A stretch of 63,646 nt of DNA, counting the filler, from Globobulimina sp. (lineage: Eukaryota), in assembly GCA_003354225.1 (NCBI GenBank). It is 37 parts of 37 records of this genome, joined end to end, with 100 filler letters (N's around TTAATTAATTAA, not from the genome) between each part and the next. Parts side by side here need not be neighbours in the genome. Positions count along the whole stretch, not along the records: positions 8,621 to 10,244 come from PIVH01013970.1; positions 10,345 to 11,968 come from PIVH01013971.1; 35 more parts are not named here. The stretch is one strand, 5' to 3'. Both the position numbers and the translations under genes were made by a program. Below, in pieces: positions 1-19,960 of the stretch. The stretch's first letter is position 1. The number at the start of each line of letters is the position of its first letter. The notes beneath the pieces are model-generated. The model did no database searches. It was given only the letters and a program-made list of their open reading frames with translations, and was not told the DNA's origin.

Positions 1-285
1 GATCGATGGTTCATCATTACTTCGTTCCTCTATCTCCGGACACATGCGCTCCGGATCCAGAATGCCTGTTTTATCGATTACGTAACGGCTCTTGATACCT
101 GAAGCCTTTTCGATGAATTCGACCGAGGATTCTGCCAGGGCTTCCATTTCGCCAGCGGCGATCTCGTCAGCGTGGGCCTGATTGAAGTTCGCTACATAAG
201 TATTGAAGGACTCAACCAGTTCTTCGTTGGATATACTTTGTTCAGGCGTAAAGAGTCCGGTTCCGCTGATGACAATGTTGCTCAC
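1..285 (-). CDS. Bacterial beta-ketoacyl-ACP synthase III (PA3286-like KAS III), N-terminal 95 codons; not in the ORF track
   Basis: Manual translation from GTG at 285, with AAGGA RBS 7 nt upstream: [83 protein letters not shown]. Closely resembles gammaproteobacterial long-type KAS III. Runs off the contig end. Confidence 0.85.
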
Positions 286-305
286 TTCAATATCCTTGTT
301 GAATC

Positions 306-1624
306 ATGTGAATCGTATTGCGCCAAGGCAGAAATTGAATTTCGAGGTGGAAGAGACAAAAGAAAATATGGTGATGTGTAATAACACTGCGACGTTGGAA
401 CAGAAATTGAAAACGAAGACGATTCGTAAAAACGACGGTTGGAAGAACTTCAAAGTGGGAATGGAAGTGGGCGCGTTGGATAGTACGAACAGGTGGTATT
501 TGGCGGAGATTTTGCGGCATAAACCAAAGAGTGACACGTTGCAGGAATACGGCAATAATTTGAAACTGTGGCAACAAAATCAATTATGGAAATATAACGC
601 GATGGAAGGCATTTACGTGCATTACATGGGTTGGAGCGCCAAATGGGACGAATGGGTTTTTATCGACACCGATACGTTATGTAACTGCATCAGCGACACT
701 TGTACGAGTTTCCTGCACCGCATCATGTCCAAAGAGAAACATGAGGCCAAATTCGGCAAAACCAAGAAAAAAAAGAAGAAGAAAAAGAAATGGCAAAAAA
801 ATGCGGGCGGCGGATGGATGGCGAATGCCGCCAACACGGTGGTGAACACAGTGGCGGCCTGGATCCCCGGCGTAGGCGATGTGGGCAATAACAGCAATCA
901 GTACAGTACCTACAATAACAGCAATCAATACAGCAGCACGAGTAACTACAGCAACCAATATAACAGCAATAGCACCTATAACGCCGGCAACCAATATGGC
1001 ACCGGCAACCAATACAACAGCACCAGCCAATACAGCAGCGGCGGCACCTACAACAGCACCAACTATAACAACAGCACCACCTCCAACTACAGCACCAACT
1101 ACAACAACAGCACCGGCACCAACTTCAATAACAGCACCGGCACCAACTACAACAGCAACACTAGCAACGATAATACTGCACAGGGCTTAGATGAGGACGG
1201 TGAGGGTGGTGGAGGCGACGCAGACGGTGACGATTCGGGCGATGCTGGCGACGATAAAGAGGAAGACGAAGAGTTCGACATTGCGTGCGATACGTTCATA
1301 TTAGAAGGCCACCGCATGAGTGGATATTGTCAGATGTTTAAACAGAAAGAGCGGCCCGACAGCAATACCATCGATAAGACGTGCTGGAACACCAAAGAAG
1401 TGAAGGAGTTTCTGATTGAAATCAACAACCAATATATATTGGAATGGAAGGGCAGTTTTGTAAATAAATCGAGCGGCATCGACTTCTTAGCCTGGGCCAT
1501 TTGCAACGATGTGTATGAGGAATTTAATAAAGATAAGGAAGCGTTGGACGTCGAGGAACAGGGCGAGAAAGAAAACAGTAAAATCAAAATCAAAGTGGAC
1601 GAAGTGTTGGATGTGCGGCATCGA
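306..1624 (+). CDS. Eukaryotic protein fragment with Tudor-knot/MBT/Agenet-like domain, poly-Lys, N/S/T/Y-rich and acidic tracts
   Basis: FKVGMEVGALDSTNRWYLAEI...IYVHYMGWSAKWDEWV is a Royal-family signature. A second copy may start at the end (KVDEVLDVRH). The first ~34 aa of track ORF 203..1672 are antisense bacterial DNA, so the start is approximate. Confidence 0.65.
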
Positions 1625-1724
1625 NNNNNNNNNNNNNNNNNNNNNNNNNNNNNNNNNNNNNNNNNNNNTTAATTAATTAANNNNNNNNNNNNNNNNNNNN
1701 NNNNNNNNNNNNNNNNNNNNNNNN
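1625..1724. other. Artificial contig spacer (44 N + TTAATTAATTAA + 44 N), first of 36 identical spacers
   Basis: Identical 100-nt linker with stops in all six frames recurs every 1721-1724 nt. Intervening contigs decrease monotonically from 1624 to 1621 nt. Confidence 0.99.
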
Positions 1725-2057
1725 GTGGAGAATGAATATAATGATATCACAATGGTTGAATATATTGACGACGATGTAATTGTAAATGAATTGGGGATCA
1801 CTAATAAAGTGCATATACAATTATTATTGAGGCAGGTCGAGGAATTTAAAGATATGAGACAGAAATTTGATGCATTAATGGCAAGAAATACAATTTTAAA
1901 ACAATTTGAACAAAACTTGAATGGAAATGGGATATTAACAATCAATGATTTAAAGAAAGATATAACCACTAAAGCGGACGCAAAGCGAATATTGAAAATA
2001 AATAATCAAAAAGAAATACAGCAAATTTTAAGTATGATTAAACTTATTGAACGTTGA
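1725..2057 (+). CDS. SAM-domain protein, C-terminal fragment
   Basis: ENEYNDITMVEYIDDDVIVNELGITNKVHIQLLLRQV fits the SAM helix pattern; 5' partial. Confidence 0.55.
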   Translation: MENEYNDITMVEYIDDDVIVNELGITNKVHIQLLLRQVEEFKDMRQKFDALMARNTILKQFEQNLNGNGILTINDLKKDITTKADAKRILKINNQKEIQQILSMIKLIER

Positions 2058-2472
2058 TAACAATTAACAACTATTAAATTTATTTATGTTTTACTTCCAG
2101 AAATATCGATCAATATAAAGTTTGCATTTGGTTTGCGAATGTAGTCAATGTACAACCCAATGCAAATGTGTTTGTATTCACTTTGCAAACCCAATGTAAA
2201 TTTTCTTTGCATAAATCATATACAAAATAGCAAACCGTTTCTGGTGAGTGACATTGTGACAAAGGTAAAAAATTATATATGTTTGCCTTCGTTTCTCAGA
2301 AACCATAAAAATCTGACGCTGAAAACAGAATGCTCTTTTCAAAAATTTATAAATGTGTTAACTCAAAAATCCTACTTTTTACTACTAAAGTTTTTGTTTT
2401 GTTCAATTGGATCTCCAAAGTGCTGCAATATCCACAAACAAACACTACCAATTTATAATTATAATACCAAAT

Positions 2473-3348
2473 ATGAATCCAATTTATCCCACCACAAACA
2501 CATGGTCAGCCCGCTCACCTCGCTTTACATTCCCATCATTAACTCCCGCAGAAGCCTCCCTATCCATTGATTTCTCCTCCTTACGGCCTGACATCGAAGC
2601 GATTTATAAGAGCGATACGGAAGAGGCTGCGATTGACCCCGTTGTTTTAAGATTTCTTATTTCAGGTACGAATATAAAAATATTCTCTTTTATTTTCCGA
2701 TTTTGCGCTTCTATTAAAATATATATATATAATGTGAAATATATACAGAGCAAATTAAAACATTAGAAAAAGAAATGAAACGCGAAGAAAATGCGTTACA
2801 AAGATTGTTGAATGCGCCTACAACGCATTTATCCGCGCCAACGCCATATAGTCCATCGCGCACAAACGCATTTTTTAATGGCTACGAATCCGATTCAGAA
2901 AGAAAAGAAGACGGAGCACCATATACCCCACGTGCCGGCGCCCAAACACCATCCCCCGGCCCTATTTATTTCGAGGAGAATGAAGCAGCGCCATCATCGC
3001 CAAATGGTGTTGGTATAGGTATTGCTCCTGATGCGCCACCACATTTTTACAGACCGAGATACGGCGACCAATACATTGACGAATCCAGCTACGAATCCAC
3101 CTACGAATCCACCGAGGAGTCTACCACTAGCTCCTCATCATTAAACTATTCGCAAACAACAACAGAATCATGGAGCACGAGTGCCGACGTATATTCCTGC
3201 AGCGACCCAGAGTACGAATATCACGGTTTAACCACTCGACAAACTATGCACAAACTATTCCCACATGCAATCGAATTGCTAAAACCCACTGATGGTGCAC
3301 TTCCAAATCATTTCATTCTTCACTATCGTTTTCCTTTCATACCTCACA
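2473..3348 (+). CDS. Hypothetical Pro/Ser/Thr-rich protein, intron 2666..2748, 3' partial
   Basis: Removing GTACGA...ATACAG joins MNPIYPT...LRFLIS in frame to EQIKTLEKEMKREE. Confidence 0.6.
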
Positions 3349-3448
3349 NNNNNNNNNNNNNNNNNNNNNNNNNNNNNNNNNNNNNNNNNNNNTTAATTAA
3401 TTAANNNNNNNNNNNNNNNNNNNNNNNNNNNNNNNNNNNNNNNNNNNN

Positions 3449-8620: not shown

Positions 8621-8774
8621 AAAGCAAACGGATTCTGAATAGCGGGGTTTTTGTGTGAGGGCTTAACTTTCTTCCTTCCTGTTTGAGACAGCTGTTTTGC
8701 AGTCCTTCCATCAAAAAGAGAAAGAATTCCTGGGCGTCGTCCTGGCGGCCAGGCCGTAGTTTCTTTGAGAGCAC
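8621..8774 (-). CDS. Ubiquitin-specific protease (USP36/42-like) fragment, probably chimeric
   Basis: LRPGRQDDAQEFFLFLMEGLQ contains the USP QxDAxEF box. GC is higher than the adjacent DNA. Confidence 0.6.
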
Positions 8775-8955
8775 TGTTTTGTTTTTCGAGTTGGATTGTG
8801 TGGGATTGAGCAGTTTTATTATAATTACATTAATTATTAGATTGCATCATTCCCAATGCATAAATGCTGTATATATGGTAACAACAAATCAATTATTTAT
8901 ATTTTGTAGAGGAAGGATAGGAAAGGAAAACAAATAAATATTTTAAGTTAATTTA

Positions 8956-9034
8956 TCAGAAAGCCATGCAAGTGGATCGGGGTTAGTCGTCATATAAATT
9001 ATTATCAGTCATACGCTCCCAAAATAATCATCAG
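8956..9034 (-). ncRNA. Box C/D snoRNA E, snR74/SNORD27-like (18S Am28) with a second 18S guide
   Basis: C CUGAUGA 9034-9028, D' CUGA 9008-9005, C' AUGACGA 8993-8987, D CUGA 8959-8956. The D' guide targets UCAUACGCU, with +5 on the A equivalent to yeast A28. The D guide is a 15-nt complement of AAGCCAUGCAAGUGG. Confidence 0.9.
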
Positions 9035-9215
9035 ATTAAGAAAAAGAAAACATTCATATAGAAACATACCATATTGTTCCTATGACGTACGTCGTATCTG
9101 CAGTTCCATTGCCATCACATAAACCTAAATATCAATTCATTATTCATCCATTTTTAGACATTGACAAAAAACAATCCCGTATTAAAAACATGTTTGTTAG
9201 GCAAAAATGAAAAAA

Positions 9216-9276
9216 TCAGTTAAAATTGTCGACATTATCTTTCAGTTCAAGTAGAGGTAAAAAAGGATATCATCAC
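9216..9276 (-). ncRNA. Box C/D snoRNA D, target unassigned
   Basis: C GUGAUGA 9276-9270, D' CUGA 9245-9242, D CUGA 9219-9216, inside intron 9310..9125 and 91 nt from the acceptor. Confidence 0.75.
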
Positions 9277-9438
9277 AAATATTTATAAGAAATAAAGATC
9301 AAATACATACCTATCCACTTATTATTTTGTATGGTTCATCATTATAATGCCTGTAATGTAAAAAACAAAAATTCAATAAATGTTTGTATAGTTTGCATTG
9401 TGTATAAAAATGTCATAATATAAAAAAAATGGGTGTGA

Positions 9439-9507
9439 TCAGATCAGGTCTCCATAGGGAGTTTTTCACGGATTCATCTCAAAACTGTGAACTATGCGTT
9501 TCATCCG
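9439..9507 (-). ncRNA. Box C/D snoRNA C, two LSU rRNA guides
   Basis: Variant C box GGAUGA 9506-9501 and D CUGA 9442-9439. Antisense elements are complementary to the conserved LSU motifs GUGAACUAUGC (11 nt) and AUCAGGUCUCCA (12 nt). Confidence 0.8.
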
Positions 9508-9678
9508 GCAAAGTTTACCAATGTACAAAACATACCATTCACCAAATGATTGTTATCCGCATTAATGATCTATGTCGAGTCGCTATATATATTAAAAAAA
9601 AAACATTATTCAGCAAAAATTATTCAGGAAAATTCAAGAAATTAAATTGTTTGGACAAATAACAAAAATTGGATTGGA

Positions 9679-9751
9679 TCATAATGACATAATGGCGTAT
9701 CTTCATTGTAGGTCAGATACCACAGCACGTGTTTAATTTAAATGTAATCAT
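9679..9751 (-). ncRNA. Box C/D snoRNA B with compensatory variant boxes
   Basis: C AUGAUUA 9751-9745, D' CUGA 9716-9713, C' AUGAAGA 9706-9700, D AUGA 9682-9679. Perfect terminal stem UUGGA/UCCAA. The D guide is complementary to UGACAUAAUGGC (possible LSU target). Confidence 0.7.
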
Positions 9752-9956
9752 TTCCAAAGTGTTTCTATCAATCAATCTATAAAAGTTACATACGTCTAAA
9801 TGGGCAAAATAACACCAATCACGCTGAGAATAACATTAATTTGTACCAATACATTTTCATTCTTTATTATTATTTGATTCCTGTGTAAATATGAAAAAAA
9901 AAGTCAGTTGAGCAAATTATTCAAAATTTTGTGTTTGATTTGATAATTTATATTAA

Positions 9957-10034
9957 TCAGCAAATTTAGATTTGTTTCAATCTCAACAGATTTACTTTCA
10001 GCAGAACGAAGGTTGTGAACAATACTATCATCAG
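9957..10034 (-). ncRNA. Box C/D snoRNA A, snR54/SNORD59-like (18S Am974 equivalent)
   Basis: C CUGAUGA 10034-10028, D' CUGA 10001-9998, D CUGA 9960-9957, terminal stem AUUGA/UUAAU. The D' guide is complementary to AGAACGAAGGUU, with +5 on the second A of GAAC. Confidence 0.88.
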
Positions 10035-10549
10035 TCAATGGAATGGAATGGAATGGTGTATAAAATGAGTTTTTCTTAACATACCATGAGGTGGGAATGA
10101 ATTGATGTTAATTGCTTCCAATATTGCTCAATTTGGGTTGTGATTGCTCAATTTACGTTTTGCTCATTATGTGTTTAGAATGGTGAAAGTGGGTGTTGTT
10201 GTTTTTTGAAGTGAAGGAGTTATTGTTAAAAACTTTGTTGTAGANNNNNNNNNNNNNNNNNNNNNNNNNNNNNNNNNNNNNNNNNNNNTTAATTAATTAA
10301 NNNNNNNNNNNNNNNNNNNNNNNNNNNNNNNNNNNNNNNNNNNNTTCTTTTATTTACAACATTGTTCACTTGTAATTTAGTACCAAGTGGATTTGTTGCA
10401 ATTGCAATCGCCGATGGTTTGTAGAATTCAATCTCTTTCGTCTCTGCTGGAAAATCAGATAGTAACATGGTCACAGTGGTACTAGAACGCTCAAGAAAAG
10501 TTTTGGGGATCGGCATCTGAGACGATATAAACGTTTACAAAGATGCATT

Positions 10550-18964: not shown

Positions 18965-19960
18965 TTTTAGTGGGCGATTTTGATGGATTGGGGGTCTCCT
19001 CAGGTTTTGTGGGGCTGCGTGTAGGCAATGTGGTAGGTGCAGGCGTGGGTGATTTAGTTGGCGATGAGGTAATGTCAGTGGGGGTTGGTGTAGGTATTGA
19101 TGTTGGTGCCGGTGTAGGGGATGTGGATGGGATGTAAGTAGGTGAAGGTGTAGGAAATAGAGTGGGTGATGGAGTGGGTGAAGGTGTAGGAGATGGAGTG
19201 GGCGAATCTGTAGGAAATACCACAATACCTATACAGCCATAGGATTCTGCACAGCCACCTGGATCTTCCTGTATATATAATATATGTTTTTTATACGCAA
19301 AATCGCAAAAGTCTGTGCTATATGTACCTGTATGCAATTGCTTTCGCCTTCGTAACAGTTTAGTTCATTGATGTAAGTTTCTACACATAACAGGCCGCAG
19401 GGAAGTGTACAACCGCAACATGCATAGGCATTGTCACAGTGATGTGTGCATGTTCCGATCGTATAGCAATCTAAACTGACACCAATACATGTATAGTAAC
19501 CACCATTATCGACGCAATTGATGTCGCAAGTTGATATCCCGTCATTGTGACATGCCATACGGACATTATCAGTGTAGGAGCCTTGTGATGTTAAGGCTGC
19601 GGAGATCTTATCATTTGGATTGTTGCCATAGACTTCAACGGTTAAATAGTCGCATGAATCGTATCCATCGCAGAGGATAGTTATATCTCTATATGATACG
19701 ACGTGTGTATTTGCACAACTTGATTGTCCATAACAATTTATATTGCATGTACCATGTAAATAATCGTCGGTACATGTAATGGTGCTTCCAGCACATGAAT
19801 TGGCTGCATTGCAATTAAAATAGCATGCTGATGATGAGGTAGAACATGTCAATTGCTGATTTGAACATGATGATCCTGAGTTACAGTCCCGAGTATAGGT
19901 TGTATATAGTTCTGGGAATATACAGATCCAATATAGTAATTTTACAAGCTCCGCTGCCAT
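18965..19960 (-). CDS. Secreted Cys-rich protein with PT/SPT mucin-like stalk, intron 19327..19269, 3' partial
   Basis: Hydrophobic N-terminus, repeated C-x-G-x-x-S-C units, then (PTPS)n. Phase-0 intron gives CIQ|EDPGG. Confidence 0.75.

Follow-up and report, generated by a model that had tools for sequence, protein, structure and literature searches.

The minus strand of one Globobulimina sp. contig very probably carries a foraminiferal host gene for several snoRNAs, with a spliced transcript from which five introns are removed, each holding one box C/D snoRNA. The window, i.e., the whole stretch of 63,646 nucleotides analyzed here, is made up of 37 contigs, each 1621-1624 nt long, with N/TTAATTAATTAA/N linkers between them; since the linkers are all that connects them, the sequence neighbouring the host contig is unrelated to it. 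The gene lies on the 1,624-base contig at 8621-10244. The minus strand of this contig has five GTATGT donors (at 10084, 9793, 9535, 9310, and 9069) and its plus strand has none, for a composition that predicts about 0.5 per strand, and every one of the other 36 contigs has at most two on either strand. We found no paralogues of the host contig in the rest of the window.

The contig was compared with contigs of four public sequencing runs (X1-X4, for which no library kind is recorded). The exons, the introns, and the joints between exons are, in the order of transcription:

10085-10244, minus strand: exon 1, ending in ATG before GTATGT, with an undefined 5′ end
9881-10084, minus strand: intron 1, 204 nt, GTATGT...CAG, joint 9880/10085 in contigs of X2 and X4
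9794-9880, minus strand: exon 2, 87 nt
9583-9793, minus strand: intron 2, 211 nt, GTATGT...TAG, joint 9582/9794 in a contig of X3
9536-9582, minus strand: exon 3, 47 nt
9351-9535, minus strand: intron 3, 185 nt, GTATGT...CAG, joint 9350/9536 in a contig of X4
9311-9350, minus strand: exon 4, 40 nt
9125-9310, minus strand: intron 4, 186 nt, GTATGT...TAG, joint 9124/9311 in a contig of X3
9070-9124, minus strand: exon 5, 55 nt
8867-9069, minus strand: intron 5, 203 nt, GTATGT...CAG, joint 8866/9070 in contigs of X2, X3, and X4 (two studies)
8727-8866, minus strand: exon 6, to the extent seen in contigs of the locus

An earlier note on this DNA had described five GTATGT...YAG introns of 185-211 nt and internal exons of 40-87 nt without naming a strand. 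All of these were reproduced, on the minus strand, and the spliced transcript that the note had postulated is seen in contigs from three of the runs (X2-X4, two studies), which join exactly across all five introns. The joints at introns 1, 3, and 4 were listed with cut shifts (+1, +1, and +2) and give the exact intron ends once shifted. Read on the plus strand, every removed piece begins with CT and ends with AC, so that its ends are GT..AG in the direction of transcription. In exon 1, contigs of X2 and X4 cover 10084/5-10186 and then join exon 2, and past 10186 those of X1, X2, and X4 continue unlike the window. Exon 6 is spanned by X3 record 18 and X4 record 24 (8727-8867), as well as by X1 record 2 (8776-8862, with 0 differences from the window). 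A heuristic search of the other contigs for ORF-joining GTA[TA]GT...YAG introns returned 10 candidates of 54-177 nt. The five host introns are longer than all of these by about one snoRNA length, which roughly supports the earlier statement that they exceed the others in size. Two minor features can be added: the intron interiors are without cover in X2 and X3, which we do not count as evidence on snoRNA expression, and exon 1 has a 12-nt direct repeat, AAATTGAGCAAT, at 10154-10143 and 10134-10123.

The first 409 nt of the spliced RNA form a leader with 15 ATGs, in which the longest ATG-initiated ORF has at most 14 codons. For this part, the description of the region as non-coding and devoid of a meaningful ORF was accurate. 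It is less secure for the last exon, which reads unbroken from unique sequence (8866-8815) into sequence shared with a ubiquitin-protease (USP) gene and enters a frame of 75 codons (8846-8622), still open where the contig ends, which holds the following block:

8667-8773, minus strand: USP-derived exon-sized block with the QxDAQEF box region, preceded by CAG and followed by GTTAAG

This block is the only protein similarity of the contig and its only USP match. It aligns with Pfam UCH PF00443 (E-value 1.3e-4, 22.1 bits, below the gathering cutoff of 23.9) over profile positions 79-125 of 254 only, and its best relative is a 986-aa protein from an Ammonia transcriptome, with 76% identity over 41 aa (residues 178-218). 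Both this relative and the fit of the guides to foram-type rRNA mark the organism as a foraminifer. We found no counterpart of the catalytic Cys box when the contig was searched with tblastn using three foraminiferal USP proteins, for which only residues 178-218 matched. No USP remnants were found in exons 1-5, and we regard a faint 'GL..GN' likeness in a single frame of exon 5 as fortuitous. Abundant contigs of X2-X4 part from the window sequence at precisely the two block ends, 8773 and 8667. Since the block has neither a start codon nor the catalytic Cys box, we read it as a partial gene duplicate. Judging from its sequence, the end of the last exon is most likely such a duplicate, copied from the genomic form of a ubiquitin-protease gene (an intron tail and one exon), although the contig is too short on this side to decide the matter. 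The spliced exons probably serve as a vehicle only, and we infer that the transcript as a whole is non-coding, a label that is so far only partly borne out.

The earlier note had regarded exons splicing into a conserved protein ORF as speaking against its proposal, and the USP block, devoid as it is of start codon and Cys box, touches on this point. It raises the alternative that the small exons are an alternative 5′ leader, or the product of a nested promoter, of a protein-coding USP paralogue, which would place the snoRNAs in 5′-UTR introns of an mRNA. We consider this unlikely. The unbroken passage of exon 6 into the USP exon, in a frame open to the contig end, is what one would expect of such an mRNA, as are the usable GTTAAG donor after the exon (8667/8666) and the conserved QEDAQEFLRF kept in the runs' version of it, and there is a precedent in Drosophila, where the dUhg6 transcript, called non-coding, proved to be part of the protein-coding gene mfl (PMC1821038, in its available part). 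Yet the frame is closed by a stop 25 codons ahead of the homologous block and offers no ATG before the QxDAQEF box, 15 ATGs lie further upstream, and nothing in the contig corresponds to the Cys box or to the first ~180 residues of the Ammonia relative. In the abundant USP mRNA contigs, another exon is joined to 8773 on the upstream side, and a DNA-like contig of X1 reaches that other exon via a short intron (deduced from loose ends at 8773 and 8814 and translated by hand), of which the last ~41 nt alone are common to the window; together, these contigs point to a separate, intact USP locus. The copy in the window also has 5 differences, which change 3 conserved residues. The layout of mfl is also different: there the snoRNA introns are downstream, in alternative 3′ regions of an intact gene, as far as the available text goes (PMC1821038), whereas here they are upstream of a protease fragment without an N-terminus.

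The reading of the locus as a multi-snoRNA host gene rests in part on the content of its introns. There is one box C/D snoRNA-like unit per intron, in a uniform position, in all five:

9952-10039, minus strand: snoRNA 1, stem ATTGA/TTAAT, box C CUGAUGA (10034-10028), D′ guide (10014-10002), D′ box CUGA (10001-9998), box D CUGA (9960-9957)
9674-9757, minus strand: snoRNA 2, stem TTGGA (9757-9753)/TCCAA (9678-9674), box C AUGAUUA (9751-9745), D′ box CUGA (9716-9713), C′ box AUGAAGA (9706-9700), box D AUGA (9682-9679)
9439-9506, minus strand: snoRNA 3, degenerate box C AUGAAAC (9504-9498), D′ guide core (9497-9487), D′-like UUGA (9482-9479), D guide (9454-9443), box D CUGA (9442-9439)
9216-9276, minus strand: snoRNA 4, box C GUGAUGA (9276-9270), D′ guide (9257-9246), D′ box CUGA (9245-9242), box D CUGA (9219-9216)
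8956-9034, minus strand: snoRNA 5, box C CUGAUGA (9034-9028), D′ guide (9019-9009), D′ box CUGA (9008-9005), C′ box UGACGA (8992-8987), D guide (8975-8961), box D CUGA (8959-8956)

In introns 1-5, box C begins 50, 42, 31, 34, and 35 nt after the 5′ splice site, and the D box ends 76, 96, 88, 91, and 89 nt before the 3′ splice site. The latter distances are exactly those given in the earlier note. They are in line with the rule that intronic snoRNAs lie ~70-80 nt upstream of the 3′ splice site, for which the original paper is reportedly that of Hirose and Steitz (2001). The C-to-D spans of snoRNAs 1-5 are 78, 73, 66, 61, and 79 nt, which agrees with the box C/D class, where 60-100 nt separate a box C (RUGAUGA) close to the 5′ end from a box D (CUGA) close to the 3′ end, and the removal of several one-snoRNA introns from a spliced transcript, as in known hosts, is observed for all five introns in the contigs of X2-X4.

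A C and a D box had been claimed for each intron, and indeed all five units have them, but they are canonical (C/GUGAUGA and CUGA) in snoRNAs 1, 4, and 5 only; snoRNA 2 (AUGAUUA/AUGA) and snoRNA 3 (box C AUGAAAC) deviate. The box C change of snoRNA 2 (G6 to U) is matched by one in its box D (C1 to A), a compensated pair given that, as we assume from K-turn geometry, position 6 of box C pairs with position 1 of box D. A canonical CUGA D′ box was recovered, as described before, in four of the five units, the exception being snoRNA 3, which has a second CUGA at 9447-9444. Terminal stems of 5 bp are present in snoRNA 1 (with one G.U) and snoRNA 2, only weak or offset A-U pairs can be drawn for snoRNAs 4 and 5, and snoRNA 3 has no stem. 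The strict pattern TGATGA-N14-30-CTGA-N15-60-CTGA occurs three times on the minus strand of the host contig versus one place on both strands of the 36 others, at 19829, where it is probably due to chance as its D guide would have no room.

The Rfam check suggested by the earlier note did not return a known family: at gathering score, there were 0 matches across the window. In E-value mode, 11 of the 15 matches on the contig are to C/D families (9 on the minus strand); the best scores (22.9-23.1 bits) lie far below gathering. One of these weak matches relates snoRNA 1 to snR54 (RF00473; 22.9 bits versus a gathering score of 50, E-value 2.5), and the model aligns the guide and the D′ box in register. 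Other weak matches link snoRNA 3 to Afu_294 (16.5 bits) and snoRNA 4 to Me28S-Am982 and SNORD12. Around snoRNA 5 (8945-9045), all seven matches with E-values up to 10 are to minus-strand C/D families; in this narrow scan they were generic, with no SNORD27/snR74 among them.

The guides were compared with foraminiferal rRNAs from metagenome loci, none of which is the organism's own and only one of which covers the 3′ half of the LSU. All 6 loci examined with Rfam have a eukaryotic SSU rRNA, 3.3-4.7 kb long, and foram-specific primers match exactly in 10/11 and 9/11 of the loci reaching that region. Against these metagenome rRNAs, four of the five snoRNAs have an antisense element of at least 10 nt that ends 1-2 nt upstream of the D or D′ box, so that the antisense elements reported earlier hold up as rRNA-fitting guides in all units except snoRNA 2, for which no convincing target was found. 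In snoRNA 5, both guides are complementary to rRNA, over 11 nt (D′) and 15 nt (D), with predicted targets at Rfam SSU model positions A28 and C49, respectively. A pattern built from both complements was found in 43 metagenome stretches, in 43/43 at the SSU 5′ end, ~24 nt into long eukaryotic SSU rRNA genes; since match statistics within the fetched loci are circular, the support lies in the pattern existing only at SSU 5′ ends. The D′ guide of snoRNA 1 has a 13-nt Watson-Crick match to AGAACGAAGGTTG, present in 11 loci (predicted target A983 of the same model), and that of snoRNA 4 pairs over 12 nt from position 1, 11 of them Watson-Crick and one G.U, with TTCAAGTGGAGG, present in 14 loci (predicted target A547). 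For the D guide of snoRNA 3, a 12-nt pairing that starts at position 1 was found with ATCAGGTCTCCA in the LSU of L033, no other locus extending over that stretch; the match is weak taken alone because 13/327 control sites reach at least 12 nt in any locus. Going only by yeast numbering, snoRNA 3 may be of U24 type.

Controls set the frame for these matches. Without filtering, 35/300 CTGA sites reach at least 11 nt against foraminiferal rRNAs, owing to the AT-rich expansions of the latter. Such statistics are weak, and we therefore counted only targets common to at least three loci. On that basis, the 13 Watson-Crick pairs of the snoRNA 1 D′ guide compare with 5/327 controls that reach at least 11 nt and 0/327 that reach at least 13, and the 12 pairs (one of them G.U) of the snoRNA 4 D′ guide compare with 4/327 controls that reach at least 12. 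The control matches are rich in A and T, and nothing around them resembles a snoRNA.

Half of the candidate guides (5/10) have no convincing target in this set of metagenome rRNAs, which are not the organism's own, namely the D guides of snoRNAs 1, 2, and 4, the D′ guide of snoRNA 2, and the D′ guide of snoRNA 3 in its correct register. Imperfect matches were seen and are not claimed: for snoRNA 2, one of 16 nt with 2 mismatches (D guide, ITS1 of L006) and one of 8 bp (D′ guide, LSU ...UUACCACAG...), and for the D guide of snoRNA 4, one of 13/15 in a variable SSU region of L006 and L040. The D′ core of snoRNA 3, GCATAGTTCAC, has its complement, GTGAACTATGC, in the LSU of L006, L003, and L025; this 11-nt core is real, but as a guide it is a doubtful candidate, as the UUGA register leaves a mismatch at position 4 and points to a G unlisted for fungi.

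The predicted SSU targets appear to correspond to known methylation sites. The N. crassa table, in the available part of PMC2780460, lists 18S-Am28 (snR74/U27, D′), 18S-Cm49 (CD4), 18S-Am538 (snR41/U62), and 18S-Am971 (snR54/U59, D′). Model positions A28 and C49 coincide with the first two; for A547 and A983, the base itself and the distance to another site in the table agree with Am538 and Am971 (A547-U584, 37 nt, as Am538-Um575; A983-C1016, 33 nt, as Am971-Cm1004). At three sites, the guides fit the foraminiferal letters better than the pan-eukaryote consensus. In sum, the guide complements adjoin the boxes and are predicted to fall on conserved rRNA core sites methylated in other eukaryotes.

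These observations make it very improbable that the C/D-like motifs arose by chance in introns rich in A and T and that the transcript is a common non-coding or junk RNA without snoRNA cargo. Short boxes, departures from the canonical sequence in two of the five C boxes and in one D box, and the lack of any Rfam match at gathering score would suit such a view, half of the guides lack a target, and unfiltered controls often reach 10-12 nt of complementarity to AT-rich foraminiferal rRNA, but chance would have to account for one unit at the same place in each of five introns, for the excess of about one snoRNA length in all of them, for the recurrence of the strict C-D′-D pattern on this contig, for guide complements next to boxes and on methylated core sites (PMC2780460, available part), and for a two-guide pattern confined to SSU 5′ ends. 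We give hardly any credence to the idea that the intron-less forms in X2-X4 are DNA, e.g., a processed retrocopy: no listed run is on record as RNA and joined forms can exist as DNA, but X1, which covers all 30 bins including the introns, has 0 of the five exon joints, the joints of X2-X4 are in exon-covering contigs found beside properly spliced USP mRNA, one diverged X4 contig is partly spliced (intron 3 out, intron 2 kept), and all skipped parts have GT..AG ends.

As a multi-snoRNA host gene, the locus could work as follows. The transcript, presumably made by RNA polymerase II, would carry each snoRNA at a distance of 31-50 nt from the 5′ splice site and 76-96 nt from the 3′ splice site; after splicing, the lariats would be debranched and trimmed to snoRNP-protected cores of 61-88 nt, which may direct fibrillarin-type 2′-O-methylation of rRNA. 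snoRNA 5 would guide modification of SSU A28 and C49, the D′ guides of snoRNAs 4 and 1 that of the SSU sites served by snR41/U62 and snR54/U59, respectively, and the D guide of snoRNA 3 possibly that of the LSU G in ...AUCA[G]GUCUCC.... The leader, full of short upstream ORFs, and the exons would act as carrier. The introns and their removal, the boxes, the complementarity to rRNA, and the USP fragment are observed, whereas snoRNP assembly and rRNA methylation by these five candidate RNAs are inferred.

The architecture resembles that of the vertebrate hosts SNHG1 (UHG) and GAS5, which are spliced, with many short exons devoid of a substantial ORF and one box C/D snoRNA per intron, which precedes the 3′ splice site by some 70-90 nt. 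These vertebrate genes have a 5′TOP promoter and are sensitive to NMD. U27, which guides 18S Am27/28 as the D′ guide of snoRNA 5 is predicted to do, is a product of a UHG intron. Unlike in these genes, to which no sequence relationship is seen or expected, the introns here are far shorter (185-211 nt) and the last exon runs into a duplicated USP protease fragment. The predicted target positions are those of the snR54/SNORD59, snR74/SNORD27, snR41/SNORD62, and U24-type families, with, for snR54, the same element (D′) and the same guide register in the Rfam alignment, but there is no detectable similarity to these families outside boxes and guides, and the guides are adapted to foram-specific rRNA letters.

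The earlier note had presented this design as a vertebrate one, which is too narrow. Non-coding hosts of the UHG kind, in which each intron contains a single snoRNA, have been described for Neurospora crassa and related fungi (PMC2780460), and dUhg host genes, with one small RNA per intron and a conserved rule for snoRNA position, for Drosophila (PMC1821038), both in the available parts of these papers, which also both cite the ~70-80 nt rule. The N. crassa hosts are likewise polycistronic, with short ORFs (159-267 bp) and similar positional constraints relative to splice sites, and their guide repertoire overlaps with the present one at the four sites listed above; Am28 is guided from D′ here as in N. 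crassa CD21, but A28 and C49 are served by one snoRNA here versus CD21 and CD4 there (PMC2780460, available part). N. crassa belongs to a different supergroup, and the available text reports no USP-derived terminal exon for it (PMC2780460). Given the descriptions in Drosophila and Neurospora, the locus is a further case of a known design, new for Rhizaria.

In agreement with the earlier note, a full-text search covering titles and abstract openings showed, among the papers listed, none on snoRNA host genes in Foraminifera or Rhizaria. To our knowledge, Foraminifera have almost no annotated non-coding RNA. The locus provides five candidate box C/D snoRNAs and at least five concrete predicted 2′-O-methylation sites in a group with unusually long, divergent rRNAs, while the USP fragment at its 3′ end is a warning that calls of "non-coding host" from short contigs can be incomplete. 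A bolder and rather doubtful reading would have the locus record the birth of a non-coding snoRNA host, in which a five-intron array was fused to a partial duplicate of a protease gene and which follows a positional rule common to Rhizaria, animals, and fungi, with intronic box C/D snoRNAs ~50-65 nt before the branch site. If this were true, the protease exon and its splice signals would now serve only as the 3′ part of a carrier RNA, and splicing-coupled snoRNP assembly would be an ancestral trait of eukaryotes rather than one of opisthokonts.

Diverged copies of two of the units occur in the public runs. In X4 record 25, the 84-nt unit of snoRNA 2 has 1 listed substitution, and the intron flanking it has several deletions and a replaced 64-nt block; in a diverged copy of intron 5 in X1, 5 of the 7 listed substitutions fall inside snoRNA 5, which counts against the host-gene reading. 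A further C/D-like element can be noted inside exon 6:

8800-8855, minus strand: possible decayed sixth C/D element, stem TGGGA...TCCCA, AUGAUGC, no CUGA

This element has a weak Rfam match to SNORD20 (20.2 bits versus a gathering score of 43).

The locus is very probably a UHG/GAS5-like host gene for multiple snoRNAs, contained within a single contig (8621-10244) and read on its minus strand. The window is made of 37 contigs of 1621-1624 nt each, sorted by length and separated by linkers of 44 N, TTAATTAATTAA and 44 N; since these are separate contigs, features are not readable across the joins and the DNA beside 8621-10244 is uninformative on the host gene. The contig has five GTATGT donors on the minus strand and none on the plus strand, where about 0.5 per strand are expected, and the remaining contigs have at most two on any one strand. 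With intron ends set by the nearest suitable YAG acceptors, introns 1-5 measure 204, 211, 185, 186 and 203 nt, and the internal exons 87, 47, 40 and 55 nt. A heuristic scan of the other contigs gave 10 candidate ORF-joining introns of 54-177 nt, so that the host introns are indeed longer, as the earlier note had proposed, by approximately one snoRNA.

Five public sequencing runs were found to have matching sequence, none of them recorded as RNA. To look for splicing, contigs of four (X1-X4, with X2 coming from a study separate from the remaining ones) were aligned to the host contig. Those of X1 cover 30 of its 30 bins and have no intron-sized joints. The contigs of X2, X3 and X4 have joints with GT..AG ends when read on the minus strand, and all five introns, for which junction reads had been suggested as a check, are joined across in these public runs, whose library kinds are not on record. 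The joints are as follows, after the cut shifts stated by the alignment.

8867-9069, minus strand: intron 5, removed exactly in contigs of X2, X3 and X4
9125-9310, minus strand: intron 4, removed exactly in a contig of X3
9351-9535, minus strand: intron 3, removed exactly in a contig of X4
9583-9793, minus strand: intron 2, removed exactly in a contig of X3
9881-10084, minus strand: intron 1, removed exactly in contigs of X2 and X4

We read the joined contigs as cDNA-derived, and the caveat on the libraries stands.

The absence of a meaningful ORF, also put forward from the sequence, holds for the first 409 of the 635 nt of spliced RNA within the contig, which have 15 ATGs and no ATG-started ORF of more than 14 codons, but not for exon 6, where a 75-codon open frame (8846-8622, minus strand) runs off the contig. 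This frame aligns with positions 79-125 of the 254-position UCH profile of Pfam (E 1.3e-4; 22.1 bits, below the cutoff of 23.9). In database comparisons it is closest to ubiquitin-specific proteases (USP) of 850-986 aa, one of which, from an Ammonia transcriptome, is 76% identical to it over 41 residues (178-218). The main rival explanation, that the small exons are the leader of a USP paralogue, seems to us unlikely, even with a direct precedent in Drosophila, where the host design is known and dUhg6, first regarded as "non-coding", was found to form part of the gene mfl (PMC1821038). The similarity is limited to a block at 8773-8667 (minus strand), preceded by CAG and followed by GTTAAG; no further USP similarity was found in the host contig, and the Cys-box region has no counterpart there. 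Abundant contigs of X2-X4 match 8667-8773 and then diverge from the window at both ends, and hand translation of these loose ends extends the USP frame in both directions, agreeing well with the Ammonia protein. One DNA-like contig of X1, with a loose end at 8814 (minus strand), reads through the end of an upstream USP exon, GTATGT and 20 more letters into window sequence. Hence, there is an intact USP gene whose short intron measures approximately 67 nt; the window shares with it only the last ~41 nt of this intron, plus the exon and no less than 46 nt of the following intron. The window junction is itself real, because contigs of X1, X3 and X4 span 8814, with over 31 letters to either side. 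From these comparisons we conclude that exon 6 probably ends in a partial genomic duplicate of the USP gene. Within 8719-8751, five letters differ from the window in every contig of all four runs, and the letters of the runs restore three conserved USP residues (QEDAQEFLRF versus QDDAQEFFLF in the window); the window copy may be drifting, or come from another strain. The narrower claim that the spliced RNA of the host gene is non-coding is, in our view, fairly probable. In Neurospora and related fungi, snoRNA hosts have ORFs of just 159-267 bp and undergo alternative splicing (PMC2780460).

Each of the five introns has one box C/D-like unit. In snoRNAs 1, 4 and 5, box C is C/GUGAUGA and box D is CUGA, and the internal D' box is CUGA as well. 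The boxes of snoRNA 2 are AUGAUUA (C) and AUGA (D), with a perfect 5-bp stem (TTGGA/TCCAA) around both. In the K-turn, the sixth nucleotide of box C pairs with the first of box D; if this geometry applies here, the two boxes would represent a compensated change from G-C to U-A. In snoRNA 3, box C is poor (AUGAAAC), D' is replaced by UUGA, and either of two overlapping CUGA motifs could be box D. From snoRNA 1 to 5, box C starts 50, 42, 31, 34 and 35 nt from the 5' splice site, and box D ends 76, 96, 88, 91 and 89 nt from the 3' splice site; the box D distances reproduce exactly those reported previously. No Rfam family reached its gathering score in the window. In E-value mode, 11 of the 15 matches in the host contig were C/D families, of which nine fell on the five units in minus-strand orientation, and a narrow scan of snoRNA 5 gave only C/D families on the minus strand (7/7). 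The best informative match, snR54 with snoRNA 1 (22.9 bits versus a gathering score of 50), keeps the D' guide and D' box in register. That the motifs arose by chance is very improbable: the minus strand of the host contig has three instances of the strict pattern TGATGA-N14-30-CTGA-N15-60-CTGA, against a single place on both strands of the other 36. This lone instance (19829-19880, plus strand) is too tight for a D guide and probably fortuitous. Exon 6 also has, at 8800-8855 (minus strand), a C/D-like relic with a 5-bp stem (TGGGA...TCCCA) around AUGAUGC, no CUGA, and a weak Rfam match to SNORD20 (20.2 bits); it may be a decayed sixth snoRNA.

Such host genes have been described in vertebrates. 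One snoRNA per intron is the rule for animals, according to a 2024 review (PMC11028025). The design is known, and is here in a new supergroup; full-text literature searches gave no paper on such snoRNA host genes, either among the matches for Foraminifera or among those listed for Rhizaria, judged by titles and the start of abstracts. Further interest comes from the 3' end of USP origin and from snoRNA 2, with its compensated pair of non-canonical boxes.

Diverged copies of the locus are present in the runs. One record of X4 (record 25, window 9535-9879) has intron 3 removed and intron 2 kept. It has one listed substitution across the 84-nt snoRNA 2, while the intron around it has lost a few letters at several places and has 33 other letters instead of a 64-nt block. 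In contrast, X1 has a diverged intron 5 in which five of the seven listed substitutions fall within snoRNA 5. That the joined forms of X2-X4 are retrocopies in DNA is extremely unlikely. In exon 1, a 12-nt direct repeat, AAATTGAGCAAT, is present in two copies (10123-10154, minus strand), and one X2 contig is 16 nt shorter there, so copies or alleles vary in length at this place.

The guides were compared with foraminiferal-type rRNAs from metagenome contigs. The joined complements of both snoRNA 5 guides, a pattern of 23 letters, matched 43 metagenome stretches, all of them starting about 24 nt past the start of an SSU-like 5' end. Rfam identified eukaryotic SSU rRNA of 3.3-4.7 kb in the 6 loci examined, and one locus (L033) has a complete SSU-5.8S-LSU unit. 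Of the 11 loci reaching the region of two SSU primers specific to Foraminifera, 10 have an exact match to one primer and 9 to the other. A 23-letter pattern would not be expected in a database unless both guides face one rRNA region, and snoRNA 5 is supported chiefly by this.

For the other guides, 11 candidate box positions were tested, with all other CTGA of the window (327 sites) as controls. Unfiltered controls are noisy, with at least 11 nt of complementarity at 35 of 300 sites, because foraminiferal rRNA expansions are AT-rich. When the target string had to be present in at least 3 loci, controls reached 11 nt or more at 5/327 sites and 13 nt or more at none, and the D' guide of snoRNA 1 has 13 nt, with its target in 11 loci. 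With one G.U allowed, 4/327 controls have at least 12 nt, and the D' guide of snoRNA 4 has 12 nt, with its target in 14 loci. The control hits are of low complexity and lack any snoRNA context. Starting at position 1, the D guide of snoRNA 3 has 12 nt complementary to the LSU of L033, the sole locus covering that part, a match that is weak by itself given an unfiltered control rate of 13/327; this LSU site may be that of U24. The D' core of snoRNA 3 can pair over 11 nt with a conserved LSU stretch in three of the four covering loci, in imperfect register with the UUGA. Among these rRNAs, we found no convincing target for either guide of snoRNA 2, or for the D guides of snoRNAs 1 and 4.

Alignment of SSU fragments from one locus (L006) placed the predicted target nucleotides on the Rfam SSU model.

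A28: predicted target of the snoRNA 5 D' guide
C49: predicted target of the snoRNA 5 D guide
A547: predicted target of the snoRNA 4 D' guide
A983: predicted target of the snoRNA 1 D' guide

We take the adenosines to be A28, A541 and A974 in yeast numbering. At three sites the guides fit the foraminiferal letters better than the Rfam eukaryote consensus, which is what guide-target co-evolution predicts. The corresponding sites in the N. crassa snoRNA table would be 18S-Am28 (D' element guide, snR74/U27 family), 18S-Cm49 (guided by CD4, for which no homologue is given there), 18S-Am538 (snR41/U62) and 18S-Am971 (D' element guide, snR54/U59) (PMC2780460). The spacings in the model from A547 to U584 (37 nt) and from A983 to C1016 (33 nt) equal those of Am538-Um575 and Am971-Cm1004 in the same table, and the bases at either end agree too (PMC2780460).

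Two further observations concern the metagenome loci. Upstream of the SSU rRNA gene of a foraminiferal-type contig, L017:7850-14150 has a dense array of approximately 50 tRNA genes, most of them in the orientation of the rRNA, with a 5S rRNA gene. In L003:547-3135, Rfam aligned the whole eukaryotic LSU model (positions 1-3401) to just 2589 nt, which suggests that this LSU is truncated, rearranged or misassembled.
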